Below, in pieces: positions 5,137 to 31,737 of a stretch of DNA of 64,000 nt. Below the pieces are notes generated by a model, which ran no database searches, was not told the DNA's origin, and saw only the letters and a program-made list of their open reading frames with translations. Every line of letters begins with the position of its first letter. The stretch's first letter is position 1. The position numbers were made by a program, and so were the translations under genes. Where the stretch lies: NCBI GenBank assembly GCA_040757335.1, contig JBFLXB010000012.1, positions 15,246 to 79,245 of the forward strand. Direction: 5' to 3'. The DNA is from Nitrospirota bacterium (GTDB lineage Bacteria; Nitrospirota; Nitrospiria; 2-01-FULL-66-17).

Positions 5137-5144
5137 AGATAATA

Positions 5145-6982: not shown

Positions 6983-7033
6983 CGCGGCGTGTAGTCATAA
7001 CAAAAGTGAGGGGAAAACACCAGCGCGGAGGGG

Positions 7034-7828: not shown

Positions 7829-9070
7829 ATGTCGTTTTCGCAATTGGGCCTTGCGCCCGAATTGGAGCGCGCCGTGGAGCGCGCAGGTTACAAAACTCCC
7901 ACCCCCATCCAGGAGCAGGCGATTCCCGTCGCGCTCAAAGGCGGGGATGTGTTGGGTTGCGCCCAGACCGGGACCGGCAAGACCGCCGGATTCGCGCTGC
8001 CGCTTCTCCAGCGCCTGGGTCACCGGCGCGGAATTTCGCCTCGCGCGCTGATCCTCGCGCCCACGCGCGAGCTGGCGCTGCAGATCGGCGAGTCCGTGCG
8101 CGCGCTTGGCGCGTTCTTGCCGTTGCGTTCGGTCGTCATTTTCGGCGGTGTGGGGTATGAGCCCCAGGACCAGGCGCTTCGACGCGGCGTGGACATCGTG
8201 ATCGCCACGCCCGGTCGCCTGTTGGACCATCTCCAGAGAAAGACCGTGCGGTTCGACTCGTTGGAGGTCCTGGTCCTCGACGAGGCCGACCGCATGTTGG
8301 ACATGGGATTCATCCATGACATCAAGCGACTGGTCGCCATCTTGCCGAAGAAGAGGCAGACCATGATGTTTTCAGCCACGATGCCGCCCGCGATTCGCGC
8401 GTTGGCCGATGATCTGCTGGTCAGTCCGACCATGATCGCGGTCGCTCCGCCGGCCACGACCGTGACCGACGTCGTACAAATCGGCCACCCCGTGGATCAT
8501 CACCGCAAGCGCGCGTTGCTGGTCCACCTGCTGGGCGACGCCTCCATGCAGCGGACCATCGTGTTCACACGCACCAAACACGGCGCCAACAACCTGGCCG
8601 AGCATCTCACCCGTCACGGGCACTCCGCGACCGCGCTCCACAGCAACAAGAGCCAGTCGGCCCGCGTGCGTGCCCTGGCCGATTTCCGCGAGGGAAGAGC
8701 CCGGGTGTTGGTGGCGACCGACCTCGCCTCGCGCGGGATCGACGTGCCGGAGGTCTCGCATGTGGTCAACTTCGACGTGCCGAATACCTACGAGGCGTAC
8801 GTCCACCGGATCGGGCGAACGGCCCGCGCCGGAGCCTCGGGCTGCGCGATTTCGCTGGTGTCGGAGGCCGACCGAGGCCTGTGGCGGGATATGCAACGCG
8901 AGGCCCGCACGCCGGTGGCAACACGCGTGGTCGAAGGGTTCGAACCCGGGCAGATCTCGGAGTCCGTTTCCAGCCGACGACCTGCTCAGGCACCGCGCGG
9001 CGCGTGGCGTCCAGGCCGAGGCGGACCGGGCGTTCGTGGTTCGCGTCAGCCGTTGCGTCGTCCCGCCTAA
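7829..9070 (+). CDS. rhlE: DEAD-box ATP-dependent RNA helicase (RhlE-like).
   Basis: Q-motif, AQTGTGKT, PTRELA, DEAD (VLDEADRMLDMGF), SAT, HRIGRTAR, and an Arg/Gly-rich C-terminal tail. AGGAAG RBS before the ATG at 7829. The transcript has a roughly 380-nt leader. Confidence 0.9.
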   Translation: MSFSQLGLAPELERAVERAGYKTPTPIQEQAIPVALKGGDVLGCAQTGTGKTAGFALPLLQRLGHRRGISPRALILAPTRELALQIGESVRALGAFLPLRSVVIFGGVGYEPQDQALRRGVDIVIATPGRLLDHLQRKTVRFDSLEVLVLDEADRMLDMGFIHDIKRLVAILPKKRQTMMFSATMPPAIRALADDLLVSPTMIAVAPPATTVTDVVQIGHPVDHHRKRALLVHLLGDASMQRTIVFTRTKHGANNLAEHLTRHGHSATALHSNKSQSARVRALADFREGRARVLVATDLASRGIDVPEVSHVVNFDVPNTYEAYVHRIGRTARAGASGCAISLVSEADRGLWRDMQREARTPVATRVVEGFEPGQISESVSSRRPAQAPRGAWRPGRGGPGVRGSRQPLRRPA

Positions 9071-16095: not shown

Positions 16096-17949
16096 TCAAG
16101 GCGGGTCGAGCGCGGTCAGCCGCGTCCGGGCGTCGCGGGCCAATGCGGTGCGTCCGCTCGCGCGCGCGGTTTCCCACGCCCGACGGTAGTACGCATACGC
16201 GTCGCCGAAACGGCCTTGGCGTTCGGCCGCCACGCCGGAGTAATAGAGCACCTCCGGGGCATCGGGCGAGACCGAGTGGGCCGCGGTCAACGCGGCGGCG
16301 GCTTCCTCGGTCCGCTGTTGGCCGAGCAGGAGCACTCCCAGGTTCAGCAAGCTGTCGCGGTGGCGCGGATTGATTGCCAGCGCCCGGCGATACCATTCCT
16401 CCGCCGCAACCGCTGCACCAGGCTCTGGCGACTCCTGGGCCAGTAGTCCCAGGTTATACAACGCCGGGACATAGTCGGGCTTGAGACGGACCGAGTGCTC
16501 ATAGTCCACACGGGCCGCGGCGCGATCCCCGCGGCGGTGCGCGGTCACGCCTCGGCCAGCCAGGGCCGGCGGGTAGTCGGGGTTGAGCGCCAGGGCGGTG
16601 GTCAACGCGGCTTCGGCTTCGTCCCAGCGCCCTGCAGCCGCCAGGGCGAGTCCAGCGTTGGTCTGCGCCCGGAACGACGCGGGCGCGGTCAGACGCGCGT
16701 GGTCCCAGAGCCGAACCGGATCGCTCCACCGGCGTCCCTGGTCGATGATGAGCCAACTGCTCGCAATCAGGGCCGTGCCTCCGACCAGCACGCCGACGGT
16801 CCGTCCGACCCGCCGCGCATCAAGCAGCCGAGCCACGCCCAGGGCGGTCAGGGCCGCCAGTCCCGCGTGTTGGAGGTAGGCGCGGTGCTCCTGAAACGGC
16901 ACGTTCAACGGCCACAGCGTGGTGGGCAGCGCGATAATGATCACCCAGAGCGCGAAAAATCCCGCCCGCCTCCATGCCGGCGGCGTTGAAGACAAGGCAA
17001 CGAGTCCGGCCACACCCCATGCCCCGACCAGGGAGACGAGCAGCCAGGCGCCGGGCTCGGGCCAGGCCGGCAGGGGATGGTCCACGGTGAGCGGCCACGG
17101 AAACACGAACACCCGGATCGCCATGGCCATCGCGCTGATCTGTCCAACCACGACGGCGATGTAGCGCGACACCGCGTCGGTTGTGGTCAACGCCGAGGTC
17201 GCGGCGCGCCACACCCCGAACCAGGCCGCAAAACCCAGGATCACGCCGAAGGCCGCGGCGTGCGGTCCCCATCGGCGCCATCCGGAGGGCCGCTCGTTGT
17301 GCTCGGAGACGATAGCGTCCATGGCCACGCAGAGCAGGGGCAGCACCACGCTGGTCTCCTTCGAGAGCAGGGCGGCGAGCCCCAGCACGGCCCACCCCGC
17401 CCACCATCCGGCCGATGAATGCCCGGCCGTTTGTCTTGACCGCGCCTGCGCGTAGCAGACGAGCGCGGCCAGCATGAAGACGGACGACAACAGGGTCGCT
17501 CGAGCGGACGCATAGAGCACGGCCTCGCTCACGGCCGGGTGCAGCGCGAAGAGCGCCGCGGTCAGGACCGCGACCTTGCGATCGAGCGCCAGGTTCCGGA
17601 CGAGGATCAACAACAGGCCCACGGCCGACAGGTGCAAGATCAGGTTGACCGCGTGAAACGCGCTGGGCGACGGCCCTGCCGATCGCAGCGTGGCCCAATA
17701 CGTCAAATAGGTCAGCGGCCGGTAATGCCCGCTCAGCACCTCCCCGCTCGACGGCATGGTCCCGGTCAAGGCTGCCTGCCAAGCGCCCGGTTGCCATAAC
17801 GCGGCGTTGGCGACGATGGCGTGCTCGTCGTCGTACTGGAAGGGATGGTCAATGAACGGCAAGTAGAGGAGGCTGGTAACGAGGCACAGTCCGATCAGGG
17901 CGAGGGTTCCCAGGCGGTCGGAACGATCCACGCCGCCACTATACCCCAA
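16096..17949 (-). CDS. Polytopic membrane protein with C-terminal TPR repeats (PMT/TMTC-like glycosyltransferase architecture).
   Basis: About 11 predicted TM helices in the N-terminal 400 aa, including a DHPFQYDDEHAI loop. Several 34-aa TPR repeats follow (ALAINPRHRDSLLNLGVLLLGQ, AYYRRAW...). Confidence 0.65.
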   Translation of the reverse strand: MGYSGGVDRSDRLGTLALIGLCLVTSLLYLPFIDHPFQYDDEHAIVANAALWQPGAWQAALTGTMPSSGEVLSGHYRPLTYLTYWATLRSAGPSPSAFHAVNLILHLSAVGLLLILVRNLALDRKVAVLTAALFALHPAVSEAVLYASARATLLSSVFMLAALVCYAQARSRQTAGHSSAGWWAGWAVLGLAALLSKETSVVLPLLCVAMDAIVSEHNERPSGWRRWGPHAAAFGVILGFAAWFGVWRAATSALTTTDAVSRYIAVVVGQISAMAMAIRVFVFPWPLTVDHPLPAWPEPGAWLLVSLVGAWGVAGLVALSSTPPAWRRAGFFALWVIIIALPTTLWPLNVPFQEHRAYLQHAGLAALTALGVARLLDARRVGRTVGVLVGGTALIASSWLIIDQGRRWSDPVRLWDHARLTAPASFRAQTNAGLALAAAGRWDEAEAALTTALALNPDYPPALAGRGVTAHRRGDRAAARVDYEHSVRLKPDYVPALYNLGLLAQESPEPGAAVAAEEWYRRALAINPRHRDSLLNLGVLLLGQQRTEEAAAALTAAHSVSPDAPEVLYYSGVAAERQGRFGDAYAYYRRAWETARASGRTALARDARTRLTALDPP

Positions 17950-18496: not shown

Positions 18497-21400
18497 ATGA
18501 AGCGTAAGGTCTTACTTTGGGCAGGGATGCTCTCCGTTGCTCTGGCGGGAGTCGGATTCGCCGCGACCGGGAACGAGCAGATCGCGCCGAACCAGCCCGA
18601 GTACACGCTGGGCGACACCGCGGTCATCTACGGCACCGGGTTCGAGCCGGGCAGCTCGGTGATTGTCGAGGTGATCCGGGCGGACGGGAGCATCGTCACT
18701 GGAGCTGGAACCGAGACCCCTGGCAGCGACACTGTCACCGCGAACTTGACCGGCGCGTTTACGTACCACTACCTGATCGACGGCGGGCCGGTGTCGGCCT
18801 ACAACGGGATCCTGACCGTCAACGCGAAGGATGCCAGCACGTTGGCCGTGCTCGCGACGACGACGTTTCTCGATGGCACGCAATTCTTGCTTCAAGGGTG
18901 CTCCAAGGATCGGGGCGATTGCACGCTCGACAGCCCCGCGACCGGGTGGGCCGGTGGGGCGACGCCCATGACGGGGTGGACGTCGGGACATCTGGAGGGC
19001 TGGTTTGACGGTGACGACGTGCCCTATCGCCTCAGAATCGGGTTGCGCGACGAGGGGAGCGCCGGACCCAAGTATTTCACGACCATCCACGACAACATGA
19101 GAAATGGGATTCTTGGCATCACCAGCGCTGGCAACTTCTACGTCGGGTACGGGCCGGTGGGTTCCCTGGAGGGGACGCTGACCAAGACCTGCCGGTTGCA
19201 GGCGTCGGGGAGCGCCGTCCCGACCGTTTCGGATCCCTGCATCGTCACCGGCCCCTCGTACAGCGGCGGTGACGGGAGCGGGCCGACACCCAGGCAGATT
19301 GAGTACGCGTGGGCGGTGCTGTTCGATCCAGACGAGGATGGAGGCAGCGATAAGAAATGGGCGGTGTACTGGACCGGCCACCTGGACGCAGGAGCGCACA
19401 ACTGGCCCGGGTCGTCGCTCCACACCAGCACCACCGCGTCGGGCAGCCAGGACGTGCCCATCGACGACATCGAGGACGATGCTCCGTCGGGCGCGAACCT
19501 GTCGATCACAAAGACCGATACGCCGGACCCCGCGTATGTCGGGGAGAACCTGATCTACACGCTCACGGTGACCAACAACGGCCCCAGCTCCGCCACCAAC
19601 GTCAAGGTGACGGACACGCTCCCGACCACGGTGACCTACGTGTCCGCGACCGCGAGCCCGGGGACGCCTGACACCTGTTCAATGATGGGCGGCACGGTGA
19701 CGTGCAACCTAGGCACCCTCGCCAACGCAGCGACCGCCACGGTGACGATCGTGGTGACGCCGATGTCGGCCGGCACACTGTGCAACAGCGCGATCGTGTC
19801 CAGCCACACGTCGGATCCGACACCCGGCAATAACAACGCCAAGGCAACGACCACGGTGTATCCTTCGGCGAACCTGTCGATCGTCAAAAACGACTCGCCG
19901 GATCCGGCTTACGTCGGCGAGAATCTGACGTACACGATGACGGTGTACAACGCCGGACCCAATACCGCCACCAACGTGTCGGTGACCGATACGTTGCCCG
20001 CCGGTGTGGATCTGGTCACGTTCTACGTCAGCCAAGGGACCGGCTGCACGCAAGGGACCGGGACCGTCACGTGCAACCTGGGGACCCTGACGAAGTGGTC
20101 AAGCGCAACGGTAACGATCGTCGTGAAACCCACCACGGCCGGAACGCTGACCAACACGGCCGCCGTGTCGAGCACCACGCATGATCCGAGCTCAGGCAAC
20201 AACACCTCGACGGCGACGACCACGGTCTATCCGTCGGCTAATTTGTCCATCACCAAGACCGGGCCCAGTACGGGGATCGTCGGACAGTCCATTAGCTACA
20301 CGATCGTGGTGTCGAACGCGGGGCCGAGTGCGGCCACGGGGGTGAGTGTGACCGATAACCTGCCGGCGGGTGTGACGTATGGGTCGGCGTCGTGGACGGG
20401 TGCATCAACGGGCACGTGTACTTTCGCTAGTCCGACCGTGACGTGCAGCATCGGGACGTTGGCGAGCGGGGCGTCCGTGACGATAACAATCACCGTGACG
20501 CCGACGGTGAACGGGACGCTCAACAACAGCGCCACCGTGTCATCGCCGACCTGGGACCCCACGCCGGGCGACCACACCACGCCGCCGGTCACGACCACGG
20601 TCACCTCGTCGGCGGACTTGGCGATCACGAAGAGCGGCCCCGGTTCCGCGACCGTGGGTGCGCCGTTTAGTTACACGATCGGGGTGTCGAACGCTGGGCC
20701 GAGTGCCGCCACGGGGGTGAGTGTGACGGACAGTCTGCCGACGGGCTTGACGTACGGCTCAGCAACGTGGACCGGCGCGTCGTCGGGGACCTGTACGTTT
20801 TCCAGCCCGACCGTGACGTGCAGCATCGGGACGTTGGCGAGCGGGGCGTCCGTGACGATAACAATCACCGTGACGCCGACAGTGAACGGGACGCTCAACA
20901 ACAGCGCCACCGTGTCGTCGCCCACGCCGGACCCCAACTCGGGCAACAACACTACGCCTCCGGTATCAACCACCGTCACTTCCTCGGCGGACCTGACGAT
21001 CTCGAAGTTCGGACCCAGTACCGCGACCGTGGGGCAGCCGATGGCGTACACGATCGGGGTGTCGAATGCGGGGCCGAGTCCGGCCACCGGCGTGACGGTG
21101 ACGGACACCCTGCCAGCGGGCGTGACGTACGGGTCGGCAACGTGGACCGGCGCATCGTCGGGGACGTGCGCGTTTGCCAATCCGACGGTGACGTGCAGCA
21201 TCGGCACGTTGGCGAGCGGGGCGTCGGTGACGATCACGATCACGGTGACGCCCACGGCCACGGGAACGCTCAACAACAGTGCCACCGTGTCGTCGCCCAC
21301 ATCGGATCCCACGCCGGGTGACCACACCACGCCGACGGTGCAAACGACGGTGAGTGGAACCCCGTCGACCGGGCCGCTGGGAGGCAACGCCTTCAGCAAC

Positions 21401-21532
21401 GCCGGCGGGGCCATGAGTTCGACAAACTACCAACTCATTACCGGGGTGGCGGGCCAGGGCATCGGCCAGGGCAGCCAGAGCACGAATTATGGGCTGGATG
21501 CCGGCTATGCGCCTGGGGTAACCGGGGGTTAG
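18497..21532 (+). CDS. Large secreted protein with six or more DUF11 (conserved repeat domain) repeats and a distinctive Gly/Gln-rich C-terminal tail.
   Basis: GGAGGA RBS and ATG at 18497. Signal peptide MKRKVLLWAGMLSVALAGVGFA. Repeats of about 115 aa: ANLSI(T/V)K(T/N)D.PDPAYVGENL.YT.TV.N.GP..ATNV.VTDTLP...TC.LGTL. The C-terminus is ...SSTNYQLITGVAGQGIGQGSQSTNYGLDAGYAPGVTGG. Confidence 0.85.
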   Translation: MKRKVLLWAGMLSVALAGVGFAATGNEQIAPNQPEYTLGDTAVIYGTGFEPGSSVIVEVIRADGSIVTGAGTETPGSDTVTANLTGAFTYHYLIDGGPVSAYNGILTVNAKDASTLAVLATTTFLDGTQFLLQGCSKDRGDCTLDSPATGWAGGATPMTGWTSGHLEGWFDGDDVPYRLRIGLRDEGSAGPKYFTTIHDNMRNGILGITSAGNFYVGYGPVGSLEGTLTKTCRLQASGSAVPTVSDPCIVTGPSYSGGDGSGPTPRQIEYAWAVLFDPDEDGGSDKKWAVYWTGHLDAGAHNWPGSSLHTSTTASGSQDVPIDDIEDDAPSGANLSITKTDTPDPAYVGENLIYTLTVTNNGPSSATNVKVTDTLPTTVTYVSATASPGTPDTCSMMGGTVTCNLGTLANAATATVTIVVTPMSAGTLCNSAIVSSHTSDPTPGNNNAKATTTVYPSANLSIVKNDSPDPAYVGENLTYTMTVYNAGPNTATNVSVTDTLPAGVDLVTFYVSQGTGCTQGTGTVTCNLGTLTKWSSATVTIVVKPTTAGTLTNTAAVSSTTHDPSSGNNTSTATTTVYPSANLSITKTGPSTGIVGQSISYTIVVSNAGPSAATGVSVTDNLPAGVTYGSASWTGASTGTCTFASPTVTCSIGTLASGASVTITITVTPTVNGTLNNSATVSSPTWDPTPGDHTTPPVTTTVTSSADLAITKSGPGSATVGAPFSYTIGVSNAGPSAATGVSVTDSLPTGLTYGSATWTGASSGTCTFSSPTVTCSIGTLASGASVTITITVTPTVNGTLNNSATVSSPTPDPNSGNNTTPPVSTTVTSSADLTISKFGPSTATVGQPMAYTIGVSNAGPSPATGVTVTDTLPAGVTYGSATWTGASSGTCAFANPTVTCSIGTLASGASVTITITVTPTATGTLNNSATVSSPTSDPTPGDHTTPTVQTTVSGTPSTGPLGGNAFSNAGGAMSSTNYQLITGVAGQGIGQGSQSTNYGLDAGYAPGVTGG

Positions 21533-21615
21533 CGGGGTCCCACGTCCGACGGATACACGGATACAATGAATGTCACAGACTCACATACACGCGATGGGGG
21601 AGGGGGAATGAGGCC

Positions 21616-22902
21616 ATGAAGATGACGCAGAGAATTGGAATCCTTGGAGTGCTGGTGGCAAGCCTAGTCATTATGGGAGGCCTGGCCCAGGCCCAGGTCC
21701 CCCAACTCATCAACTACCAAGGGGTGCTGAAGAACGGCGGGGGAACCCCGATCACGGGGACGGTGAGCGTCACGTTCTCGATCTATTCGGGTCCCTCGGG
21801 GGGCACCGCGCTCTGGAGCGAAACCCAGAGCGTGGTCGTCACGGGTGGACTATTCAATGTGTTGCTGGGCTCCTCCACCGCGTTCCCGGCGTACTTCTTT
21901 CAGGGCACCACCCCGGATCGCTATCTCGGGGTAAAGGTCGGAAGCGATCCGGAGATGACGCCGCGGCAGCGGCTGGTCAGCGTGGGATACACGCTCAAGG
22001 CCGAGGATGCGGACAGCCTGGGAGACCGGATTGCGATTACAGACAAGCCCAATCAACGGGTTGGAGTTGGAACGTTGAGTCCCCAAGCGAAACTTCACGC
22101 CGAAGTCACCAGCCCGGCTGGTGAAGGGACGATGTGGGCCATCCAGACGCTCAGTAATTCGTCTCCCTTGCCGAGCACTATTGATACAGCCCTCAGGTTG
22201 CGGATCAACGACCAGAGCACGGCCAATATTCTTTCCAAACAGGTGTTTCGGTTGATCTACTTCCGGGATGCGGCGGCGACTGGCTCGGTCACCGATTTTG
22301 ATTCGACAATGGTGCTGGCCAACTTCATCAATTCGAATGCGCCGTACTCCCTACGTGGAATTACGGTCGAGGGGCCGCAAATCGCCACTGGGAGAACCCT
22401 GAATGAGTTCATTGGGCTGTTTGTTCGGGAGCCTTCGGTAACGGGCACGATCGCGAGTAACAAGGCCATCGTCACAGACCCCAGGGCTGGCAATATCGGG
22501 TTTGGGGTAACGAACCCCACCGAGCGTCTGGAAGTCGCGGGCAATGTCCGCGCGACCGCGTATCTCACCGGGAGTTCGCGAGAGTTGAAAAAGGGCATCA
22601 CGCCTCTCGGGCAAAACGACTACGCCAAGATCATGGATCAGATTAACGACTTGCAGATGGTCCGGTATCTGTATAAGACAGAGGACAATCGGCAGCCTCA
22701 CCTCGGCGTGATCGCGGAAGAGTCTCCGAAAGAGATTCTCGATGAAACCGGGAAGGCCGTCAGTCTAGCCGACTATGCGGGATTCATTCTGGCGGGCTTG
22801 AAGGCGCAGTCCGAGGAGATTCAGGCGCTCAAGGCGCACATTCGGGACTTGGAATCCAAACTTCCCGCGCCCGAGAATCAGGCCGCTGCACGAGTCGAGT
22901 GA
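21616..22902 (+). CDS. Secreted tail-fiber-like protein with a C-terminal Peptidase_S74 (endosialidase intramolecular chaperone) domain.
   Basis: Signal peptide. The N-terminal QLINYQGVLKNGGGTPITGTVSVTFSIYSG is typical of tail-fibre domain proteins. The C-terminal block SSRELKKGITPLGQNDYAKIMDQINDLQMVRYLYK...HLGVIAEESPKEIL...ADYAGFILAGLKAQSEEIQALKAHIRDLE matches the S74 autoprocessing chaperone domain. Confidence 0.75.
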   Translation: MKMTQRIGILGVLVASLVIMGGLAQAQVPQLINYQGVLKNGGGTPITGTVSVTFSIYSGPSGGTALWSETQSVVVTGGLFNVLLGSSTAFPAYFFQGTTPDRYLGVKVGSDPEMTPRQRLVSVGYTLKAEDADSLGDRIAITDKPNQRVGVGTLSPQAKLHAEVTSPAGEGTMWAIQTLSNSSPLPSTIDTALRLRINDQSTANILSKQVFRLIYFRDAAATGSVTDFDSTMVLANFINSNAPYSLRGITVEGPQIATGRTLNEFIGLFVREPSVTGTIASNKAIVTDPRAGNIGFGVTNPTERLEVAGNVRATAYLTGSSRELKKGITPLGQNDYAKIMDQINDLQMVRYLYKTEDNRQPHLGVIAEESPKEILDETGKAVSLADYAGFILAGLKAQSEEIQALKAHIRDLESKLPAPENQAAARVE

Positions 22903-22973
22903 GTTGCCTATAGCCACCCGGCTGGGCTGCTGGAGCCTCAACGCAGTTTCTCGGCCGTCTCCGCCGGCACTTC

Positions 22974-25238
22974 GTGAAAATCGCTCTTCGGGCCGGCTTG
23001 ATCGCGATGGTCATGGCGATCGTCATTGCTTCCGGCGACGTGGCGTGGTCCGTGGTTCCGCCGGGCGATTCCGCCGGACCGACACCGGTCGTGACCGCGG
23101 ATCGCGCGCCTGCCGAAGTCGTCGTTCGATTCAAACAAGGCACCACCTCAGGGGACAAAGAGCGAGCCCACATCGAGACTGACACCGAGGTCCTCTCGGA
23201 AATCCCTCGCCTGCGAATGGAGCGGCTGAGGTCAAAGCGGGGTGAGTCGGTGGACGCGCTGCTGCGATCCTTCGCCCAGAACCCTAACGTCGAGTACGTC
23301 GAGCCCAACTATATCGTGACGGCGTCAGCCGTGCCGAACGATCCGCGCTTCTCGGACCTGTGGGGCCTTCACAATATCGGTCAAACCGGCGGCATGGTCG
23401 ATGCGGATATCGACGCCCCCGAGGCGTGGGACCTCCAGACCGGAAGCAGCGGTCTCGTTGTGGGGGTGATCGACAGCGGGATCGACTACAACCACCCGGA
23501 TCTTACCGCGAATGTCTGGACCAACCCGGGAGAGGTCGCGGGCAACGGAATTGACGACGATCACAACGGGTACGTTGACGACATCCGTGGGTGGGACTTC
23601 GTCAATAACGACAACAACCCATTGGACGATTACGGGCATGGCACGCACGTCTCGGGCACGATCGGGGCGGTCGGGAACAACGGCGTGGGAGTGGTTGGCG
23701 TGGCCTGGCAGCTCAAGATCTTGCCCGTGAAGTTTCTGGACGCCACGGGGACGGGCACGTCGTTCGACGCCGCCTCCGCCATCGTCTACGCCGCGGACAT
23801 GGGCGCGAAGGTGCTGAACGCCAGTTGGGGGTGCTCCAATTGCTTTCCGCAAGTTGTGGAAAACGCGATTGCTTACGCCGATCAACAGGGGGTGGTGTTC
23901 GTGGCGTCGGCGGGCAACGAGGCCACGAACAACGATGTGATCCCGTCCCATCCCTGCGGATCCAGCCAGCCGAACGTGCTCTGCGTGGCGGCCACCACTG
24001 CTCAGGACGGTTTGGCGTCGTTCTCGAACTACGGCGCAGCCACGGTGGACTTGGGGGCGCCGGGGGTCAGTATTCTGTCCACGGTGCCTAATGGCGGATG
24101 TGCGTTCTGCGCGCCGTCACGGTATCTGTACGCCAGCGGCACCTCCATGGCCGCGCCTCACGTCGCGGGGGCGGCCGCCCTCGTGTTCAGCGAGAGCCCC
24201 ACGCTTTCGGTCGCTGAGGTCAAGCAGGCGATACTGGATACCGTCGATCCCGTGCCCGCCTTGGCCGGGGTGACGATGACTGGAGGAAGGCTCAACGCGG
24301 CAGCGGCCCTGGCGCAGGTCGGCCCTGTCGACCTGACCATGACCGATGTAACGCCGAACGCCGCGTCGGTCAATGCGGGGAGCACGCTATCGGTCTCTGA
24401 TACGACTTTCAACCAAGGGACCAGTGCAGCGGGGAGTTTCACGATCGCGTATCACCTGTCCACCAACACGAGTTCCGGCGATGGCGACGATATCGCGATC
24501 GCCACCACGCGGGCAGTGGGCTCCCTGGGCGGCGGTGCGTCGAACGTGGCCTCCACCGCGCTGGCGATCTCAGGGGGAACGCCTGCCGGGAACTATTACG
24601 TGTGCGCGATCGCTGATGCTGCGTCCGCCGTCATCGAAACGAACGAGGCCAACAACGCCCTCTGCAGTCCATCGACGGTCACGGTTCCCCCGCCGGATCT
24701 GATCGTGACCTCGGTCTTCACCGGGTCATCCGTGTTGGCGCCTGGAGACGCGTTCAATGTCTCTGACAGCGTTGCCAATCAAGGTGGATCGGCGGCTGGA
24801 GCCTTTCTGGTCGACTTTCATCTGTCGTCGGATCCGGCCTATGGCGGCACGGACGACATCACGTTGAGCGCCACGCGACCAGTGCCCTCGCTCAGTGCGG
24901 GAGCCACCAGCAGTGGGGCCACCACACAGACGATCCCGTTGACGGCACCCCTCGGCAATTACTACGTGTGCGCCAAGGCGGACAGCGGGAACGCAGTCTC
25001 GGAGGGCACGGCCGAGTCCAACAACACCCTGTGCAGCGCCCCCACGATCAGAGTGGCAATCCCGTCCACGAATCTGGGCGGAAGCGGAAGCAGCAGTACG
25101 GGCGGTGGGTCCATCGCCTCGTCGTCGTACCGGATGGAGCCGGGCGTGGTGGGCCAGGGCGTGGCGGGTTCAGGAGGGCAGAGTGCGGGCTACCAGCTTG
25201 AATCCGGATTTGGAGCCCAGATCGTTGGGCAGCAGTAA
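22974..25238 (+). CDS. Secreted subtilisin-like S8 serine protease with an I9 propeptide and two CARDB domains. Its C-terminal tail is shared with the DUF11 protein.
   Basis: GTG start with signal peptide. Triad motifs VIDSGIDYNHPDL, HGTHVSGTIG and GTSMAAPHVAGAAAL. Two roughly 115-aa CARDB repeats end in ...NYYVC(A)(I/K)AD...E.NN.LCS. The C-terminus is ...SSSYRMEPGVVGQGVAGSGGQSAGYQLESGFGAQIVGQQ. Confidence 0.85.
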   Translation: MKIALRAGLIAMVMAIVIASGDVAWSVVPPGDSAGPTPVVTADRAPAEVVVRFKQGTTSGDKERAHIETDTEVLSEIPRLRMERLRSKRGESVDALLRSFAQNPNVEYVEPNYIVTASAVPNDPRFSDLWGLHNIGQTGGMVDADIDAPEAWDLQTGSSGLVVGVIDSGIDYNHPDLTANVWTNPGEVAGNGIDDDHNGYVDDIRGWDFVNNDNNPLDDYGHGTHVSGTIGAVGNNGVGVVGVAWQLKILPVKFLDATGTGTSFDAASAIVYAADMGAKVLNASWGCSNCFPQVVENAIAYADQQGVVFVASAGNEATNNDVIPSHPCGSSQPNVLCVAATTAQDGLASFSNYGAATVDLGAPGVSILSTVPNGGCAFCAPSRYLYASGTSMAAPHVAGAAALVFSESPTLSVAEVKQAILDTVDPVPALAGVTMTGGRLNAAAALAQVGPVDLTMTDVTPNAASVNAGSTLSVSDTTFNQGTSAAGSFTIAYHLSTNTSSGDGDDIAIATTRAVGSLGGGASNVASTALAISGGTPAGNYYVCAIADAASAVIETNEANNALCSPSTVTVPPPDLIVTSVFTGSSVLAPGDAFNVSDSVANQGGSAAGAFLVDFHLSSDPAYGGTDDITLSATRPVPSLSAGATSSGATTQTIPLTAPLGNYYVCAKADSGNAVSEGTAESNNTLCSAPTIRVAIPSTNLGGSGSSSTGGGSIASSSYRMEPGVVGQGVAGSGGQSAGYQLESGFGAQIVGQQ

Positions 25239-25525: not shown

Positions 25526-26641
25526 GTGCAAGGGATGATGGGGTTCCTGAGATTTACCCTTGCGATGTTTGTGGTAACCGCGCATCTGACTGAAGGTGTG
25601 CGGTTCTTTTCACATTGGGGGGTGTTTGCAGTCTTCGGTTTTTACCTTATCTCCGGCTATCTGATGACCCTGATCCTTCATGAGACATATTCGTTTAGAT
25701 TTTCGTCGTTTGTGTTGAACAGATTCTTGCGCTTATTCCCGATCTACTATCTTGTGGCAGTTGTTTCGGCATATCTTATCCTGTCTGTACCAGCGTCTGC
25801 TGACTTTCTCTCGGTATGGGAAGTTAAATATCGAGCATCAGACTTTTTGGGGAATGGACTAATCTTCCCTTTTGAGTTCTACGATGCGTCTTTCCGCATA
25901 GTGCCGTCCACGTGGTCTATAGCCGTCGAGCTAATCAACTACTTTCTGCTTTGGTTGGTTGTTGCACGAAGTCGCTCCTTAGCACTTTCTACCGTATTGC
26001 TCACGATAACCTACCACGTCGTTACCCTTGCAGTGGGGATGGACTGGAGTAGCCGATACCGCCCTTTTTATGCAGCGCTTCTCCCATTTTCTCTGGGGGC
26101 ATGCATTTATTTCTGCCGTGATCAATTAGCGCGCTTGTCGATCTCTACTATTCGATATGTAGCCTTCGGTTCATTCCTGGTTTGGGTCGCGAATCTGATT
26201 CTTTGTGGTGTTGTGGCAGGGATGGGGGGGCCTCACTTTGACACCTTCTACTACTGGAACCTGGTCTCCTTGCTAGCTCTTATCTCTTGTCTAACCACTT
26301 CATCCCTGAAGTCTCTGTCCCCAAGGTGGGGAAAGATTTTTGGCGACCTGGCGTACCCGGCCTTTCTCACCCACTGGATCATTGGATTCGCCGTAAGTCT
26401 TTTCGTGCTAGGGGGGCAGAGGAGGGGTCTAGCGCTACTGGCTCTGTCTGTATTTCCGATACTTGCGGTGTCGTTTGCCCTAGCGTGGTCAGCTGACCGC
26501 TGGCTCGAGCCGTTGCGGGACAAGGTGCGAAGAAAAGTGGCTCTGCCCGCTACGGTCAGTTCAGGGCAAAGCAAATTTGAGAGAGTCTTCAGGAAGTCCT
26601 TTGGGTGGCTTAGGGTGTCCGGCGTGGACAATTCAGATTGA
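25526..26641 (+). CDS. Acyltransferase family 3 (OatA/OafA-like) integral membrane O-acyltransferase. Low-GC gene.
   Basis: N-terminal ...FVVTAHL..GV.FFSHWGVFAVFGFYLISGYLM motif (AT3 family) and about 10 TM helices. GC is roughly 48% against about 65% in the flanks. Confidence 0.8.
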   Translation: MQGMMGFLRFTLAMFVVTAHLTEGVRFFSHWGVFAVFGFYLISGYLMTLILHETYSFRFSSFVLNRFLRLFPIYYLVAVVSAYLILSVPASADFLSVWEVKYRASDFLGNGLIFPFEFYDASFRIVPSTWSIAVELINYFLLWLVVARSRSLALSTVLLTITYHVVTLAVGMDWSSRYRPFYAALLPFSLGACIYFCRDQLARLSISTIRYVAFGSFLVWVANLILCGVVAGMGGPHFDTFYYWNLVSLLALISCLTTSSLKSLSPRWGKIFGDLAYPAFLTHWIIGFAVSLFVLGGQRRGLALLALSVFPILAVSFALAWSADRWLEPLRDKVRRKVALPATVSSGQSKFERVFRKSFGWLRVSGVDNSD

Positions 26642-26652
26642 CGGATCGGCGG

Positions 26653-26760
26653 AATAGTGGTACATCGTCACCTGTTCATATTATGAACAGGATTTGATTG
26701 CGGGCTGCAGGTAATCCTCGGCCCTTTTTCTGATTCTTGGTGTTCAGACTATGAACGCCT
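26653..26760. repeat. Roughly 110-bp intergenic repeat, copy A2, containing the palindrome CTGTTCATATTATGAACAG (26672..26690).
   Basis: See copy A1. It is directly upstream of the regulator gene. Confidence 0.7.
26672..26690. promoter_or_regulatory. Second copy of the 19-bp palindromic operator-like site, upstream of the Rex-like regulator gene.
   Basis: CTGTTCAT-ATT-ATGAACAG lies 87 nt upstream of the regulator start. Confidence 0.45.
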
Positions 26761-26776
26761 CGTAGTCATCGGGAAT

Positions 26777-27364
26777 GTGATGAGAAAAGACGACAGCTTT
26801 CATCTCTTCCGCATCCTGGACGAACTCTCCAAGAACGGGGAGGTGACCCAGCGGGGGTTGAGCCGGCGGCTCGGGGTGGCCTTGGGATTGACCAATTTGT
26901 ACGTGAGGCGGCTTGGGAAGAAGGGCCTGATTAAAGTGGTCAACCTCAAAGCGAACCGCCTCCGGTACGAACTGACGCCCAGCGGCATCGCGCAGAAGAC
27001 CGCGATGGCGTTTCAATACGTTCAGGATTCCTACGTGTTCTACCGCGAGGCGCGACGGACGCTGACCGCAACATTCGAGGCGATGAAGAGGACGGGGGTA
27101 CGGTCGGTGGTGCTGTATGGAGCAGGGGACCTCGCCGAGATCGCGCTGCTTTCGCTGCAGGAGGCTGATCTCGACCTGACCGGCGTGGTGGGCCTAAAAC
27201 ACCAGGGGCAGTCGCTGTGCGGGAAGCCGGTGGCCGACCCCGCGTCGCTGGCGTCGATTGAATACGACCGGGTAGTGGTGGTAGAGCGCGAGCGAGAAGA
27301 CGCGATGAAATGTCTGGCGGATCTGGGAGTGGACGGTTCGAAAATCGTTTGCGTGGGAGTGTGA
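26777..27364 (+). CDS. Winged-helix transcriptional regulator with a C-terminal Rossmann-like domain (Rex-like architecture).
   Basis: N-terminal wHTH (FHLFRILDELSKNGEVTQRGLSRRLGVALGLTNLYVRRL) followed by VRSVVLYGAGDLAEIALLSL (GxGxxA dinucleotide-fold start). About 195 aa. Confidence 0.55.
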   Translation: MMRKDDSFHLFRILDELSKNGEVTQRGLSRRLGVALGLTNLYVRRLGKKGLIKVVNLKANRLRYELTPSGIAQKTAMAFQYVQDSYVFYREARRTLTATFEAMKRTGVRSVVLYGAGDLAEIALLSLQEADLDLTGVVGLKHQGQSLCGKPVADPASLASIEYDRVVVVEREREDAMKCLADLGVDGSKIVCVGV

Positions 27365-27374
27365 GCAGCAAGCC

Positions 27375-28172
27375 ATGAAATCCCAGGTGATGGGTGTCTG
27401 GCACTATCGCCACTTTATTCTCTCCTCCATCCGGAACGAGTTTCGCTCGCGGTTTATCCGCAGCCGCCTTGGCGGGCTGTGGATGATCATTCATCCCCTG
27501 GCCCAAGCCGCCATTTTCGCGCTGGTGCTGAGCCAAGTGATGGCCGCGAGGCTACCGGGTATGGCCGGAGACAAGTTTGCTTACGCCGTCTATCTTCTGT
27601 CCGGAATACTCGCCTGGTCGTTGTTTTCAGAGGTGATCGGCCGTTGCGTCACCCTATTCATCGACAATGGCAATCTGCTCAAGAAGATCGCGTTTCCCCG
27701 AATCAGCCTGCCGTTGATCGTGGCCGGCTCCGCGCTCGTCAACAACCTCCTCTTGTTTCTTGCCATCATCGTCGTCTTCGGTGTGCTGGGCCACGTACCC
27801 GGCATCCAGATCGCCTGGGTTCCGCTATTAATGCTGCTCACCTTGGCGCTCGGGCTTGGGGTCGGGATACTGCTCGGCGTGTTCAACGTATTTATCCGCG
27901 ATGTGGGGCAGGTGGTGCCGGTAGCGCTGCAACTGGGCTTTTGGTTCACCCCCATCATCTATCCTCCGAATGTTGTTCCGGAAGCCCTGCGCCCGATAAT
28001 GAACCTGAACCCCATGGCTATGGTGGTCCAGAGTTTCCACAAGGCCCTTCTCTTCAACACGTCTCCCGAGTTCGTTAGTCTGGGGGTGGTTCTTCTGGTT
28101 ACTTTTGCGTTGTTGGGTATGGCGCTCAGCGTTTTTCGGCGTGCCGGTGCCGAAATGGCGGATGTGTTGTGA
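27375..28172 (+). CDS. wzm: ABC-2 type polysaccharide export permease.
   Basis: About 265 aa with six TM helices. The N-terminal ...RNEFRSRFIRSRLGGLWMIIHPL matches the ABC2_membrane signature. It precedes the ATPase with a 4-nt overlap. Confidence 0.85.
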   Translation: MKSQVMGVWHYRHFILSSIRNEFRSRFIRSRLGGLWMIIHPLAQAAIFALVLSQVMAARLPGMAGDKFAYAVYLLSGILAWSLFSEVIGRCVTLFIDNGNLLKKIAFPRISLPLIVAGSALVNNLLLFLAIIVVFGVLGHVPGIQIAWVPLLMLLTLALGLGVGILLGVFNVFIRDVGQVVPVALQLGFWFTPIIYPPNVVPEALRPIMNLNPMAMVVQSFHKALLFNTSPEFVSLGVVLLVTFALLGMALSVFRRAGAEMADVL

Positions 28173-29464
28173 GCGCTCCGATGATCGAGGTCGAGAACAT
28201 CGGCAAATCGTTCCGGACGTATTCGAGCCAATGGCACCGCTTCCGAGGGTGGTTCGGAGCGGGTCCTCGGCGATACGCTGATCACTGGGTGTTGCGAAAC
28301 GTCTCATTTGCAGTCGGGGCGAGCGAATCCATCGGTATCCTCGGCCGTAACGGTGCGGGGAAGAGCACCCTCCTCAAGCTGATCGTCGGGACCCTCGCAC
28401 CCTCTGAAGGCCACGTGAAGGTCGGGGGCCGCATCAGCGCGATCCTCGAATTGGGGATGGGCTTCAACGCCGAATTCACCGCCCGCCAAAATGTCCTGTA
28501 TGGATGTGGACTGTTGGGCTACAACCGGGACGAAATCGAGTCGGCGATGCCGGAAATCGAACGCTTCGCCGATATCGGTGAGTATTTTGATCAACCCCTA
28601 CGCACCTCCTCCAGCGGCATGCAGATGCGGGTAGCGTTCGCGGCCGCTACCGCGTTTCGCCCGGACGTGCTGATCGTGGACGAAGCTCTTTCGGTGGGCG
28701 ATCTCTTTTTTCAAGCAAAGTGTTTCGAGCGGATCGGCGAGATGAAGGCGTCTGGTACCACGCTGCTCTATGTGTCACATGCGGCGGGAGATATTGCGAA
28801 ACATTGCGAGCGTGCCCTGTTCATCAAGGAGGGCAGGCTCCTCATGGATGGGCCGGCACGTGAGGTCTCAAATGTGTACCTGGACGATCTCTTCGGAAAG
28901 AGCGCGCCCCACCAAAGAACCGTACGATCAGCTCAGGCTGCTAACGAAACACGGTTTGCCGCAGATAACGTCGAGCGCTTCCACACGCGGCCTTTTTACC
29001 GAAAAGACGAGCATCGGTGGGGTGTTGGCGGGGGACGTGTTCTCGATTTCTTGGTCGAGGTCGATGGCGAAGCATTTCCTTCCGCTATCTATTCACATCA
29101 AAGGATGCGAGTCTCGTTTAAGGTTCATTCTGAGCAGGAACTCGCGAAGCCCATATACGGGTTGCTGATCAAGACGATCGAGGGGATCTACGTCTACGGT
29201 ACCAACTCCAAATTTGCGCAACCAGGAGTGACCCCGTCGTCCGTACCTGCGGGCGATAACCGGGTGGTGTCGTTCGAATTTCCCATGATGTTGAACACTG
29301 GGGCTTACCTGATTTCCCTGGGAGTCTCGAATGAGGATGACAGCGGGCAGGTCGTGCCCATCGATCGGCGGTATGACTCTGTCCTGATAACGGTGACGAA
29401 CGGGCAGCAGGGATCGGGGCTTGTCGATCTTGCAGCCCAATTTGAATGCCACAAGGCCGCATGA
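28169..29464 (+). CDS. wzt: Polysaccharide export ABC ATPase with a C-terminal O-antigen terminus-binding (Wzt_C-like) domain.
   Basis: Walker A GRNGAGKST, the LSSGMQMRVAFAAA signature, and Walker B LIVDEALSVGD. About 180 extra C-terminal residues form a beta-rich domain as in E. coli O9a Wzt. Confidence 0.85.
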   Translation: MSAPMIEVENIGKSFRTYSSQWHRFRGWFGAGPRRYADHWVLRNVSFAVGASESIGILGRNGAGKSTLLKLIVGTLAPSEGHVKVGGRISAILELGMGFNAEFTARQNVLYGCGLLGYNRDEIESAMPEIERFADIGEYFDQPLRTSSSGMQMRVAFAAATAFRPDVLIVDEALSVGDLFFQAKCFERIGEMKASGTTLLYVSHAAGDIAKHCERALFIKEGRLLMDGPAREVSNVYLDDLFGKSAPHQRTVRSAQAANETRFAADNVERFHTRPFYRKDEHRWGVGGGRVLDFLVEVDGEAFPSAIYSHQRMRVSFKVHSEQELAKPIYGLLIKTIEGIYVYGTNSKFAQPGVTPSSVPAGDNRVVSFEFPMMLNTGAYLISLGVSNEDDSGQVVPIDRRYDSVLITVTNGQQGSGLVDLAAQFECHKAA

Positions 29465-31737
29465 GCATCGAGCATCGCCAGTCCATTCCCTCGCTCGTAG
29501 CAGCACTGCCGGAGGTATATCAACCCATTTATGGCCATCCGGAAATATCGTGGTCGGCCTCGCGCGAATGCGGTGACCGCCTAAACGAAATCGTAGCGGT
29601 ATATGAGGCGTTGTCGGCAAACCACCGGCGACCTCTGCGTGTGCTGGATCTCGGCTGCGCACAGGGATTCATCAGCCTTAGCCTGGCCGCACAAGGCGCT
29701 GTCGTGGTCGGAATCGACAACCTGGCGGCCAATGTCGCCGTCTGCAACGCGTTGCGTGAGGCGAATCCGACGTTTGATGTTCAGTTTCGCGAGGCCGCGA
29801 TCGAGTCCACGATCGAACACCTGAACCCCGGGGAGTTCGACCTGGTGCTCGGGCTCAGTGTGCTTCATCATCTGTGTCACCGGTACGGTAAAGACAGAGT
29901 TCGCGAATGGACGACCGCCTTGACCGCAAAGGCTGAAATCGCGGTGTTTGAACTTGGCGTCGCGAGTGAGCCGCTCGACTGGGCGAAATCCTTGCCTGAA
30001 GACGAGCGATATCTACTCGACGGCGTTCCGTTTGTCCATGAGCTGTCACGTTTTCCGACCCATCTGTCCGAGATTATGCGGCCGCTCTATGTGTGCAGTA
30101 GCCGGTATTGGTATTTGGATGGAAAGCTGGGTGCGTTTGCCAAATGGACAACCAGCTCCCATTCCCTCGCCGGAGAGGCTCACGAGGGGACGCGCCGGTA
30201 CTTCTTTGGCGAAGGGCAACTCGCGAAGGTATTTCGGCTGACTGGACGGCTAGCCAAACCAAATCGCGATGAAATTGAGCAGGAGGCCGAGTTCCTGGAT
30301 TCCCCTCCGCCCGGGTTTCCACGCGCGCCGTCATTGTTTACCAAAGGCACCACCGACCGTGAGGCCTGGCTCGCCAGAGAGGCCCTGGGCGGCGATCTGT
30401 TGATTGATCTGATACGCGGGCAGGTCGCCTACGACAGCAGGGCAATCTTGCTGGACGTGCTGGATCAATTGTGTGCTTTGGAGGAAGTTGGGCTCTATCA
30501 CAGAGACGTCAGGGTCTGGAACGTCATCGTGGGGCCGGACGGCAGAGCCTCGCTCATTGATTTCGGTGCCATATCCAAGAAACGGGAAGATTGCATTTGG
30601 CCAAGCGATGTGATCCTTTCGTTTGTTATTTTCGTCCGAGACGTTTCTGCACGGAGTGTTGATCGTGCTTTTCCACGGCAGCCATTCATCAGCCCATATA
30701 ACTTGCCAGACCCGTTCAATAGGTGGATTTTGAGCGTGTGGCATCAGCCAGTGGCTGTCTGGAGTTTCAAGCTGCTCAGAGAGAGTCTGCAAAACCTCCC
30801 GGATCGTTCTGATCAGCCGGATATCATTGGCGAAGCACAAGCTCTGTGGATACAAGCCATTGAGCGGCATCTTGATGGACTGGGTTCGTACGCCAGCCGT
30901 ACTCAGATGGTGAGCAGCGACCTAGCCAATCAGCTTTCTCAGGTGCGCACTCAGATCGAAACGCTGCGCCAAGACCTAGCTGCGCAACTGCATGCGCAGC
31001 AACATGCGCAGGCGCTTGCCGATGCACGCCTGCAGGAGCTCCAAGCAATCTACTCCAGCCGTTCGTGGCGCATGACGGCGCCACTCCGTCAGGGAGCGGT
31101 ATTCGCCAGGCGCTGGGTGGGCCGCATCGCCAATGTCGAATGGACCGTAGGCAGACTTCCGCGGCGTTGGGCGGGTTACACTGCAATCCGTCGTATCGGC
31201 GGGATAGTGCTTCGGCCCTTCCGAAGAGTTCGGCATCGCGTCAAACGGGTCGCACCGGCTGTCGACACAAGAACCCGCATAGGACAGGCAGTCCCGGGTG
31301 CCGCACCTACTCCATCGGAGTCTGAGATCGCACCGGCCATTAACACTATTCGACATCGGATCGTGGAGCAATTGGATAGCTATGTCGCTTGGCAGGAGAG
31401 TCATCCCGTCAGTACGCTGGAAAGAAAGCTCTGGGAAGATGGTCTGCGCATCGACGCCACGGTGTATCCGGTGGGCGCGTTGCGAAGACTACCGGAGGCC
31501 TATCTGTTTGAGGCTCTCAGCATCCTGTTATTTAAACGCCCCCTCGAAAAGATGCCGATGATCAGTGCTCTTGGGAAGCTCCGTCTCCGGAGGGGGCTGA
31601 TACTCGTGTTGTGCACCGTTCTACCAGGCCGCCGCGCACGGATTTCCGGGCTGTACAGGCGAGTGATTCGCGATGTCTTGTCGGTGAGCCCGCCCATACT
31701 GGCGTTTGCCAGAAGGATCTATTTCCGGGTCCGATGA
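29461..31737 (+). CDS. WbdD-like bifunctional chain terminator: SAM methyltransferase, protein-kinase-like domain, coiled-coil, C-terminal domain.
   Basis: MTase motif I VLDLGCAQGFISLSLA. Kinase catalytic loop YHRDVRVWNVIV and DFG (SLIDFGAIS). A long heptad region follows (LSQVRTQIETLRQDLAAQLHAQQHAQALADARLQELQ). ATGA coupling with wzt. An alternative start lies at 29446. Confidence 0.7.
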   Translation: MSIEHRQSIPSLVAALPEVYQPIYGHPEISWSASRECGDRLNEIVAVYEALSANHRRPLRVLDLGCAQGFISLSLAAQGAVVVGIDNLAANVAVCNALREANPTFDVQFREAAIESTIEHLNPGEFDLVLGLSVLHHLCHRYGKDRVREWTTALTAKAEIAVFELGVASEPLDWAKSLPEDERYLLDGVPFVHELSRFPTHLSEIMRPLYVCSSRYWYLDGKLGAFAKWTTSSHSLAGEAHEGTRRYFFGEGQLAKVFRLTGRLAKPNRDEIEQEAEFLDSPPPGFPRAPSLFTKGTTDREAWLAREALGGDLLIDLIRGQVAYDSRAILLDVLDQLCALEEVGLYHRDVRVWNVIVGPDGRASLIDFGAISKKREDCIWPSDVILSFVIFVRDVSARSVDRAFPRQPFISPYNLPDPFNRWILSVWHQPVAVWSFKLLRESLQNLPDRSDQPDIIGEAQALWIQAIERHLDGLGSYASRTQMVSSDLANQLSQVRTQIETLRQDLAAQLHAQQHAQALADARLQELQAIYSSRSWRMTAPLRQGAVFARRWVGRIANVEWTVGRLPRRWAGYTAIRRIGGIVLRPFRRVRHRVKRVAPAVDTRTRIGQAVPGAAPTPSESEIAPAINTIRHRIVEQLDSYVAWQESHPVSTLERKLWEDGLRIDATVYPVGALRRLPEAYLFEALSILLFKRPLEKMPMISALGKLRLRRGLILVLCTVLPGRRARISGLYRRVIRDVLSVSPPILAFARRIYFRVR

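Follow-up and report, generated by a model that had tools for sequence, protein, structure and literature searches.

A portable three-unit terminal module on secreted proteins of a Nitrospirota locus, encoded beside genes for MAT-like fibres

The 64-kb stretch of Nitrospirota DNA analysed here (the window) carries genes for three secreted proteins on a single strand: a DUF11-repeat protein, a predicted MAT-like trimeric fibre and an S8 subtilase. The first and the last of these end in similar tails that, by homology, are shortened C-terminal copies of a portable module of about 55 amino acids (aa), and the fibre encoded between them starts with a conserved beta-rich N-terminal domain (ND). The module is described by no Pfam family or dedicated NCBIfam model, and is undescribed as far as the libraries and literature searched show. 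Genes for the module and genes for ND fibres keep company in distant lineages, and we consider it quite probable that this conserved portable module is functionally coupled to ND fibres. The DUF11-repeat protein and the subtilase (NCBI MEW6682907.1 and MEW6682909.1) are both encoded on one 87-kb contig of a Nitrospirota metagenome-assembled genome (MAG). The three genes and the two tails are as follows.

18497..21532, + strand: gene of the DUF11/CLIPPER-repeat secreted protein, 1011 aa (MEW6682907.1; from its open reading frame (ORF), Pfam DUF11 and TIGR01451)
21356..21529, + strand: tail 1, C-terminal 58 aa of the DUF11 protein; units 2 and 3 preceded by a degenerate unit 1 (GTPSTGPLGGNAFSNAGG)
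21616..22902, + strand: gene of the MAT-like trimeric fibre protein (predicted), 428 aa; signal peptide, ND, variable tip and S74 domain
22974..25238, + strand: gene of the secreted S8 subtilase, 754 aa; 100% identical to MEW6682909.1 (P0002)
25056..25235, + strand: tail 2, C-terminal 60 aa of the S8 protein; units 2 and 3 preceded by a degenerate unit 1 (AIPSTNLGGSGSSSTGGG)

All three proteins begin with a Sec-type signal peptide, as judged by eye. In the DUF11 protein it is followed by a head of about 300 aa, five DUF11 repeats (Pfam DUF11, five stretches, E 5e-133) and the tail, and in the S8 protein by a fervidolysin-like prodomain, the S8 domain, two CARDB domains and the tail. The original prediction, an earlier note on this DNA, had called the two tailed proteins giant and their genes adjacent; they are only 1011 and 754 aa long, and the fibre gene stands between them. 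Its statement that the two bodies are unrelated does not hold entirely: the DUF11 repeats weakly align with the CARDB domains (BLASTP E 4e-5), and the DUF11 protein matches the CARDB model.

The tails that it quoted are present in the translations exactly as given (...GGNAFSNAGGAMSSTNYQLITGVAGQGIGQGSQSTNYGLDAGYAPGVTGG in the DUF11 protein and ...GGSGSSSTGGGSIASSSYRMEPGVVGQGVAGSGGQSAGYQLESGFGAQIVGQQ in the S8 protein). A shared tail of roughly 45 aa had been proposed; a tail is indeed shared, and its length comes to about 55-60 aa, made up of two tandem units of about 20 aa and a degenerate third unit upstream. In tail 1, unit 2 (S-T-N-Y-Q-L) starts at 21419 and unit 3 (S-T-N-Y-G-L) at 21479, and the protein terminates in DAGYAPGVTGG. 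In tail 2, unit 2 (S-S-S-Y-R-M) starts at 25119 and unit 3 (S-A-G-Y-Q-L) at 25182, and the terminus is ESGFGAQIVGQQ. Both tails are rich in Gly, Ser and Gln. Neither terminus has a hydrophobic run or an Arg/Lys cluster, in agreement with the earlier statement that a transmembrane (TM) helix or basic anchor is lacking. The likeness between the tails is real and not compositional: the tail-versus-tail Smith-Waterman score is 103, compared with 37.5 +/- 6.2 and a maximum of 70 for shuffles of one tail, none of 2000 of which reached 103. Four of the six matches to the pattern S..Y.[LMIV]..G in a six-frame translation of the whole window fall in the two tails.

A profile made from six tails had 32 matches at E <= 1e-3 in 1.84 billion representative proteins; they have two architectures and align as a single module of about 55 aa composed of three units (a word-index search with the two tails alone returned a single orthologue fragment). 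The consensus of the units is x-N-Y-x-L-x-W...GGG, then S-S-x-N-Y-x-L...G-Q, then S-x-N-Y-x-L-x-x-G-F/Y(-W). The window tails fit units 2 and 3 well, and unit 1 is degenerate in both. In the first architecture (class A) the module is located at the extreme C-terminus of a few large secreted multidomain proteins, with passengers that include SBBP with CLIPPER, PKD, PhoD phosphatase, FG-GAP-like (beta-propeller) repeats, and S8 with DUF11. P0130, a protein of 794 aa from an ENA metagenome, shares with the window DUF11 protein the head of about 300 aa (18497..19500), for which there is no Pfam family, and has a tail that ends in …DAGYVPGIIGG. Its middle consists of TSP3 and InlB-B-like (Flg_new_2) repeats that replace DUF11; head and tail are kept and the stalk is exchanged. 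Another member of the P0130 cluster, the 48-aa P0259, proved to be unrelated on inspection.

In the second architecture (class B) the module follows directly behind the signal peptide of short secreted proteins, and is itself followed by nothing, a dockerin, FN3 or PKD. A search with a joint alignment returned 109 clusters, nearly all of them proteins of about 93 aa with a common layout: signal peptide, module, GYWYG, short linker and a C-terminal YLP(L/I)(V/I)(L/M)(R/K) box (YLP-box). True dockerins are also found on some module proteins (P0138, P0143 and P0147). In all but two cases, the module occupies a chain terminus of the mature protein. The module has no relative in the PDB by profile search, and a literature search with the YLP-box and module motif strings found nothing relevant.

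The window tails can be retrieved with a hidden Markov model (HMM) built solely from unrelated, N-terminal (class B) copies of the module. They rank 1 and 2 among the 572 window ORFs (E 4e-7 for the DUF11 tail, domain E 3.7e-3 for the S8 tail) with 32.1 and 19.9 bits, against 10.3 and 9.9 bits for the best of 1000 shuffles of each, and both align over units 2-3 (HMM positions 16-57) at the extreme C-terminus. Each tail combines a class-B HMM match at the terminus of a Sec-secreted protein with a neighbouring ND gene, and both are counted as members of the three-unit module family. These results bear on the possibility that the tails have no specific function, being Gly/Ser/Gln-rich flexible ends or the remnants of a decayed Ig-like repeat, alike through composition. 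The high content of these residues, the lack of a predicted structure in AlphaFold and the degenerate unit 1 of the window tails would all fit. However, the shuffle controls reject composition, a profile made from unrelated proteins retrieves the tails, the conservation is position-specific over distant lineages, and between close relatives the tail exceeds the DUF11 body in conservation. The low-complexity alternative is thereby effectively refuted, and we regard it as very improbable; the tail is a conserved functional element, as had been proposed.

For the window tail with 58 aligned sequences, AlphaFold2 gave a mean predicted local distance difference test (pLDDT) score of 44. For a full mini-protein of the 93-aa type with 78 sequences, pLDDT was about 48-56 over the module and confidence was confined to the signal-peptide helix. 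These models weakly suggest that the module does not fold alone.

Tail 1 is about 80% identical (78-84% by stretch) in the DUF11 orthologues of four close relatives (L001-L004). Compared with L004, it is 84% identical over 50 aa and 78% over 58 aa, versus 59% for the bodies, and the DUF11 orthologue on contig L012 retains the same tail. The S8 protein is 84% identical overall to that of its relative, and the core of tail units 2-3 has 2 differences in 34 residues (~94%, counted by eye); the last 8 or so residues beyond the module diverge while the module core is kept. In the comparison of the window with L004, the bodies of the proteins are less conserved than their tails. Among the 120 closest S8 homologues, the tail is limited to 4: the window protein, its 84% identical orthologue (P0003), and P0034 and P0036, which bear it even though TSP3 repeats take the place of the CARDB domains. 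Because the remaining 116 end at the last CARDB or other domain without a tail, the tail is a separable module. The expectation that it extends beyond the two window proteins is borne out by its retention in orthologues and its recurrence on unrelated passenger proteins.

The product of the middle gene is predicted to be a MAT-like trimeric fibre, with a putative trimeric beta-helical shaft and a putative surface location suggested by weak PDB matches (Bd2133 and Bd3182; MyRF was also weakly matched) and by a match to a phage tail-fibre protein. Three parts can be distinguished.

21694..22020, + strand: ND, the conserved beta-rich N-terminal domain, aa ~27-135 (QVPQLINYQGVLK...EMTPRQRLVSVGY; local HMM)
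22108..22566, + strand: variable tip, aa ~165-317 (phage-genome comparison)
22573..22899, + strand: S74 intramolecular chaperone/autoprotease domain (Pfam and translation)

With the tail fibre protein of Burkholderia phage AH2 (vB_BceS_AH2) the tip shares 39% identity, and the S74 part matches a Bacillus phage protein. ND has no match in 50,697 phage genomes and no Pfam family, and a PDB profile search with it gave noise only; by these comparisons, it is the non-phage part of the fibre. Its consensus reads ...(I/F)(N/P)(Y/I)QG.L.....G.P..G.....F.(I/L)Y....GG......V.V..GLF...........YLG(V/I).VG.D.EMTPRQ... The possibility that the module mimics the first strand of the fibre (INYQG) was rejected when profile-profile comparison found no similarity. 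Peptidase_S74 (PF13884) is matched at aa 320-378 with 32 bits (cut-off 22), and a putative cleavage motif, S-S-R-E-L-K, can be read from the translation at the expected place, instead of the consensus S-D-x-x-x-K (Caulton et al. 2024, PMC10769870). By the Pfam score and this motif, the fibre has a C-terminal S74 domain with the catalytic Ser and Lys, and cleavage would be expected.

The layout of the window fibre, with a signal peptide, a beta-rich N-terminal domain, a phage-like variable tip and S74, resembles that of the MAT fibres of Bdellovibrio bacteriovorus. Between the window fibre and that of L004 (8349..9461), ND and S74 are each 71% identical and the tip (window 22108..22566) cannot be aligned, which indicates a mosaic swap; such mosaic behaviour has been described for MATs (PMC10769870). 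There are also clear differences. The window fibre has 428 aa compared to about 1000 aa, its host is a Nitrospirota MAG with no evidence of predation, and tails are not part of the MAT description. Its match to the NCBIfam model Bdello_MAT_N (NF053851; E 3.3e-10) reaches 40 bits, below the cut-off of 60, and covers half of the model only (positions 4-77 of 162). The relatives L005 and L004 score 50.7 and 40.4 bits against the same cut-off, and the ND copies found beside C-terminal tails match the model at E 1e-10 to 1e-13. In Bdellovibrio, an N-terminal domain of about 130 aa is invariant across all 21 MAT fibres, and its binding partner has been left explicitly open (Caulton et al. 2024, PMC10769870).

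A local ND HMM run over all loci revealed that an ND-fibre gene lies beside a module gene in 8 of 8 independent contexts. The contexts counted are the loci with enough flanking DNA, which leaves out the short contigs L012 and L015, and the class B loci had been chosen by sequence length, not by gene content.

Context 1, window and close relatives L001-L004 (class A): ND-S74 gene between two tail genes
Context 2, L005 (class A): neighbouring genes for a 1474-aa tail protein and an S8-TSP3 tail protein, with the ND-S74 gene 2.6 kb downstream of them
Context 3, L025 (class A): ND-S74 gene starts 233 bp past the tail gene
Context 4, L013/14 (class B; L013 6811..10354): two ND genes interleaved with two mini-protein genes
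Context 5, L016-18 (class B; L016 6692..8294): ND gene ends 10-40 bp ahead of the mini-protein gene
Context 6, L019-21 (class B; L019 6864..8282): ND gene ends 10-40 bp ahead of the mini-protein gene
Context 7, L022 (class B; 5032..6294): ND gene ends 10-40 bp ahead of the mini-protein gene
Context 8, L023/24 (class B; L023 4769..6285): ND gene ends 10-40 bp ahead of the mini-protein gene

No ND gene was found elsewhere in the DNA of the loci examined, including the other 60 kb or so of the window. The ND-fibre gene followed by the gene for a protein of about 93 aa forms a conserved two-gene cassette on uncharacterised metagenome contigs that are possibly Chloroflexota-like. The second mini-protein of L013 has G-G-G-Y in place of S-x-N-Y. 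In L005, a more distant relative, the S8 tail gene is separated from the gene of the ND-S74 fibre by an insertion of two PIN/MazE-type toxin-antitoxin pairs (6541..8275). As a possible partner of the tail, the S74 fibre protein whose gene stands between the tail genes had been put forward, and the pairing in all eight contexts gives this idea strong contextual support.

The synteny suggests a specific form of coupling, in which the module docks onto the ND of the fibre and so co-localises the adhesin-like DUF11 protein and the S8 protease with it. We hold this docking reading tentatively, as a hypothesis with a substantial chance of being right and a comparable one of being wrong. After Sec export, the module would bind ND, plausibly by beta-strand addition; its three units would be beta-hairpin-like, disordered alone, and would fold on binding. 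One three-unit module per fibre trimer is conceivable, which is pure speculation. The DUF11 protein and the S8 protease would thereby be held at the cell-proximal base of the fibre on the cell surface, and in the mini-protein lineages, the module and the YLP-box would tie the fibre to the envelope. If correct, adhesins, proteases and fibres would be joined in one surface apparatus without sortase-type chemistry, and the small tag-and-partner pair could be used for surface display. The ND pairing also offers a concrete candidate for the binding partner of the cell-proximal domain in MAT-like, phage-derived fibres.

Several observations weigh against docking. Gene adjacency would fit any kind of coupling, with the module protein acting as an assembly factor, a substrate, a co-polymer or a co-regulated partner, and the pairing was surveyed in one direction, from module genes to ND genes. 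The ND of the mini-protein loci has a weak match or none to Bdello_MAT_N, and is linked to the window ND by the local HMM only, with E 1e-30 to 1e-38 for non-seeds. The C-terminal version could differ from the N-terminal one in its mode of action, given that unit 1 is poor in the window tails and that these have neither GYW nor YLP, the features seen in the mini-proteins. Low AlphaFold confidence is weak evidence for disorder, and docking leaves it unexplained how the outer membrane is crossed in a diderm Nitrospirota cell.

The C-terminal version of the module seems to have a narrow distribution. Its search in DNA used a degenerate pattern that represents the DUF11-type spacing variant only and fits about 60% of the C-terminal tails known. 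This pattern had no true match in 185,579 GTDB species representatives; three matches were dismissed, two as an outer-membrane-protein-like chance match and one for want of an ORF in the matched frame. A scan with a peptide pattern from six tails matched 17 stretches, none of which was confirmed by tblastn, where a short Gly-rich query may produce false negatives. The same DNA pattern gave four matches in a metagenome collection, the one real match being the DUF11 orthologue of L012; the collection excludes the samples of L004 and L005, and absence there means little. Taken together, these searches give only an indication that the C-terminal tail is rare among the GTDB representatives. No module relative was confirmed in the viral contigs of IMG/VR, where a class-B DNA pattern, which detects 3 of the 5 known mini-protein contexts, had no match either.

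The original prediction had favoured a C-terminal tag for sorting that is specific to the lineage and has a secretion or anchoring pathway of its own. In this explanation, the module would be a sorting, secretion or anchoring signal read by an enzyme of an undescribed pathway. Nitrospirota-type proteins do always carry the module at the extreme C-terminus, on several unrelated secreted passengers, and the window, L004 and L005 each have two tagged proteins encoded close together, much as the PEP-CTERM, LPXTG, GlyGly-CTERM and MYXO-CTERM signals and the C-terminal domain (CTD) of the type IX secretion system (T9SS) are found at the C-termini of diverse secreted proteins, several of them tagged per locus. 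In addition, the YLP-box of the mini-proteins, a different C-terminal motif, is flagged by NCBIfam as a putative sorting motif. However, more than 100 clusters have the same module at the mature N-terminus, where it follows the signal peptide directly. A C-terminal place therefore cannot be required for its function, and a tag confined to C-termini and to one lineage does not agree with this distribution. The two window proteins have ordinary signal peptides of the Sec type, and for this reason the module is not regarded as a signal for secretion or sorting. The window tails have no signature motif of the PEP-CTERM, LPXTG or GlyGly-CTERM type, no TM helix and no basic cluster, and neither Pfam nor NCBIfam gave a match to them (at E<=10 for the sorting-signal models of NCBIfam). 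Nor are they T9SS CTDs: as had been noted, they are shorter (55-60 aa versus a beta-sandwich of 70-100 aa), and there is no match to Por_Secre_tail/TIGR04183 and no AlphaFold2 fold. No cognate enzyme is encoded nearby. Exosortase, sortase and rhombosortase were not seen in the 64-kb window or the eight neighbourhoods, to which the search was limited, and the latter have no recurrent gene of the sortase, exosortase or secretion type, which speaks against a dedicated pathway. In the S8 pair it is the sequence past the module that diverges while the core is kept, and a tail that is at least rare in the 185,579 GTDB representatives, as judged with a DNA pattern of one spacing, would be unusual for a sorting system. 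We consider a sorting signal unlikely.

The main alternative to docking is pilin-like self-assembly. The module would then be a strand-exchange or polymerisation unit; the mini-proteins would form a thin filament with the ND fibre as its tip or base, and the tails would insert the DUF11 and S8 proteins into it. The sole curated model that touches the module is CPR_pilus_PamT (NF058579), in its N-terminal part (positions ~27-80), and the module is so far known only as this unremarked stretch of the model, although it is conserved on more than 100 protein clusters in several lineages. PamT has been predicted to be the tip pilin of a pilus that works by donor-strand exchange in bacteria of the Candidate Phyla Radiation (CPR) (Troman et al. 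2026, bioRxiv 10.64898/2026.03.03.709456). Many proteins with N-terminal-type copies align over residues ~27-80 of the model, and the module thus seems to be present in PamT as well, immediately behind the signal peptide. These matches (E 1e-10 to 1e-3) are partial, covering model positions ~6-80 with 15-41 bits, far under the cut-off of 240 bits. Self-assembly would also suit the location of the module at the mature chain terminus with two exceptions, the lack of a predicted monomer fold, and the YLP-box, whose alternating hydrophobic residues could serve as a donor strand. On the other hand, the window tails do not match the PamT model even at E<=10 and do not belong to its family, for which a full-length match above 240 bits is required. 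PamT continues into a truncated Ig-like pilin domain, and the chaperones of the Pam operon are absent here; chaperone- or usher-like genes were not seen in the eight neighbourhoods. The Pam paper is silent on this region of PamT, and self-assembly alone would not account for the strict pairing with ND genes. We view it as rather improbable, and as better placed than the sorting signal.

The YLP-box itself is covered by two NCBIfam models (NF053834 and NF050076), which describe the last 10 or so residues and not the module. The module-bearing mini-proteins of about 93 aa end in this box, whereas the window tails lack it and are not members of these families.

Docking of the module onto ND would be analogous, in function only, to the dockerin-cohesin system. 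In both cases, short terminal modules of duplicated repeats are found on unrelated secreted enzymes and adhesins, and for both, a non-covalent attachment of the carriers to a scaffold is proposed. The module has no sequence relationship to dockerins and no Ca-binding EF-hand, and its proposed partner is the base of a trimeric fibre, not a cohesin. Extended to all lineages, the docking reading would make the module the partner of the ND of MAT-type trimeric fibres in a widespread system of the cohesin-dockerin kind, in which mini-proteins anchor the fibres, enzymes and adhesins of the Nitrospirota type load onto the fibre base, and the PamT of CPR bacteria might share the module. This broad version is less probable than docking as such, and we think it somewhat unlikely as a whole.

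A further explanation without docking is that the Ser/Thr-rich tail is a region of processing or modification, either a pro-segment cut by the neighbouring S8 protease or a site of O-glycosylation. In the window, L004 and L005, the large tail protein is found together with a tail-bearing S8 protease. PMT or YfhO genes are found near L023 and L013, and a weakly GT-C-like membrane protein is encoded just upstream of the three window genes (16096..17949, - strand). The latter is a multi-pass protein of 617 aa with C-terminal TPR repeats, a weak match to DUF6056 (GT-C-like) and an F-Q-Y-D-D-E-H motif near its N-terminus; it presumably resembles the protein O-mannosyltransferases of the TMTC/PMT type. 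However, there is no S8 gene near the L025 tail gene in the 7.2 kb available, and S8 genes are missing from most mini-protein loci. The neighbours of glycosyltransferase type are not of one family, and unrelated genes stand between some of them and the module gene. Processing or modification explains neither the position-specific conservation of N-Y-x-L and G-Q nor the strict pairing with ND genes, and we judge it slightly less probable still than a sorting signal.

The three window genes are likely co-transcribed, because they lie on one strand with gaps of 83 bp (DUF11 gene to fibre gene) and 71 bp (fibre gene to S8 gene) and no terminator-like site was found between them. An in-frame ATG at 18320, upstream of 18497, was judged the less likely start of the DUF11 gene. 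PF01345 (DUF11) has been renamed 'CLIPPER' in newer Pfam, and this class is predicted to hold intramolecular isopeptide bonds (PMC12617251); by analogy, the five DUF11 repeats of the window protein may be covalently stabilised stalk domains. On the 3' side of the S8 gene, an envelope-polysaccharide cluster (window 25526..31737 and beyond) encodes Acyl_transf_3, an HTH regulator, an ABC-2 permease, a Wzt-like ATPase, glycosyltransferases and methyltransferases, and the order is the same in L004 (12482..22265). The GC content of the window drops from about 0.62-0.68 to about 0.50-0.58 between about 24 and 40 kb. A prophage remnant was considered for the locus and rejected: no part other than the fibre tip and S74 matches phage proteins, and the locus is surrounded by cellular genes for envelope and polysaccharide functions.

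Module proteins are easily overlooked in annotation, where such tails and mini-proteins are now 'hypothetical', unnoticed or mis-called as separate genes. In L001 (2378..2626), L002 and L003, the JGI gene calls split the last 82 aa off the DUF11 orthologue as a 'hypothetical protein' (P0001), and tails may therefore hide in databases as tiny orphan proteins. JGI also called a 516-aa shadow ORF opposite the DUF11 repeats. In L012 (590..2060), the next gene 3' of the tail of the DUF11 orthologue apparently encodes a second protein with the same head, as read from shifted-frame shadow ORFs, which suggests tandem paralogues of the DUF11-head protein in that organism.

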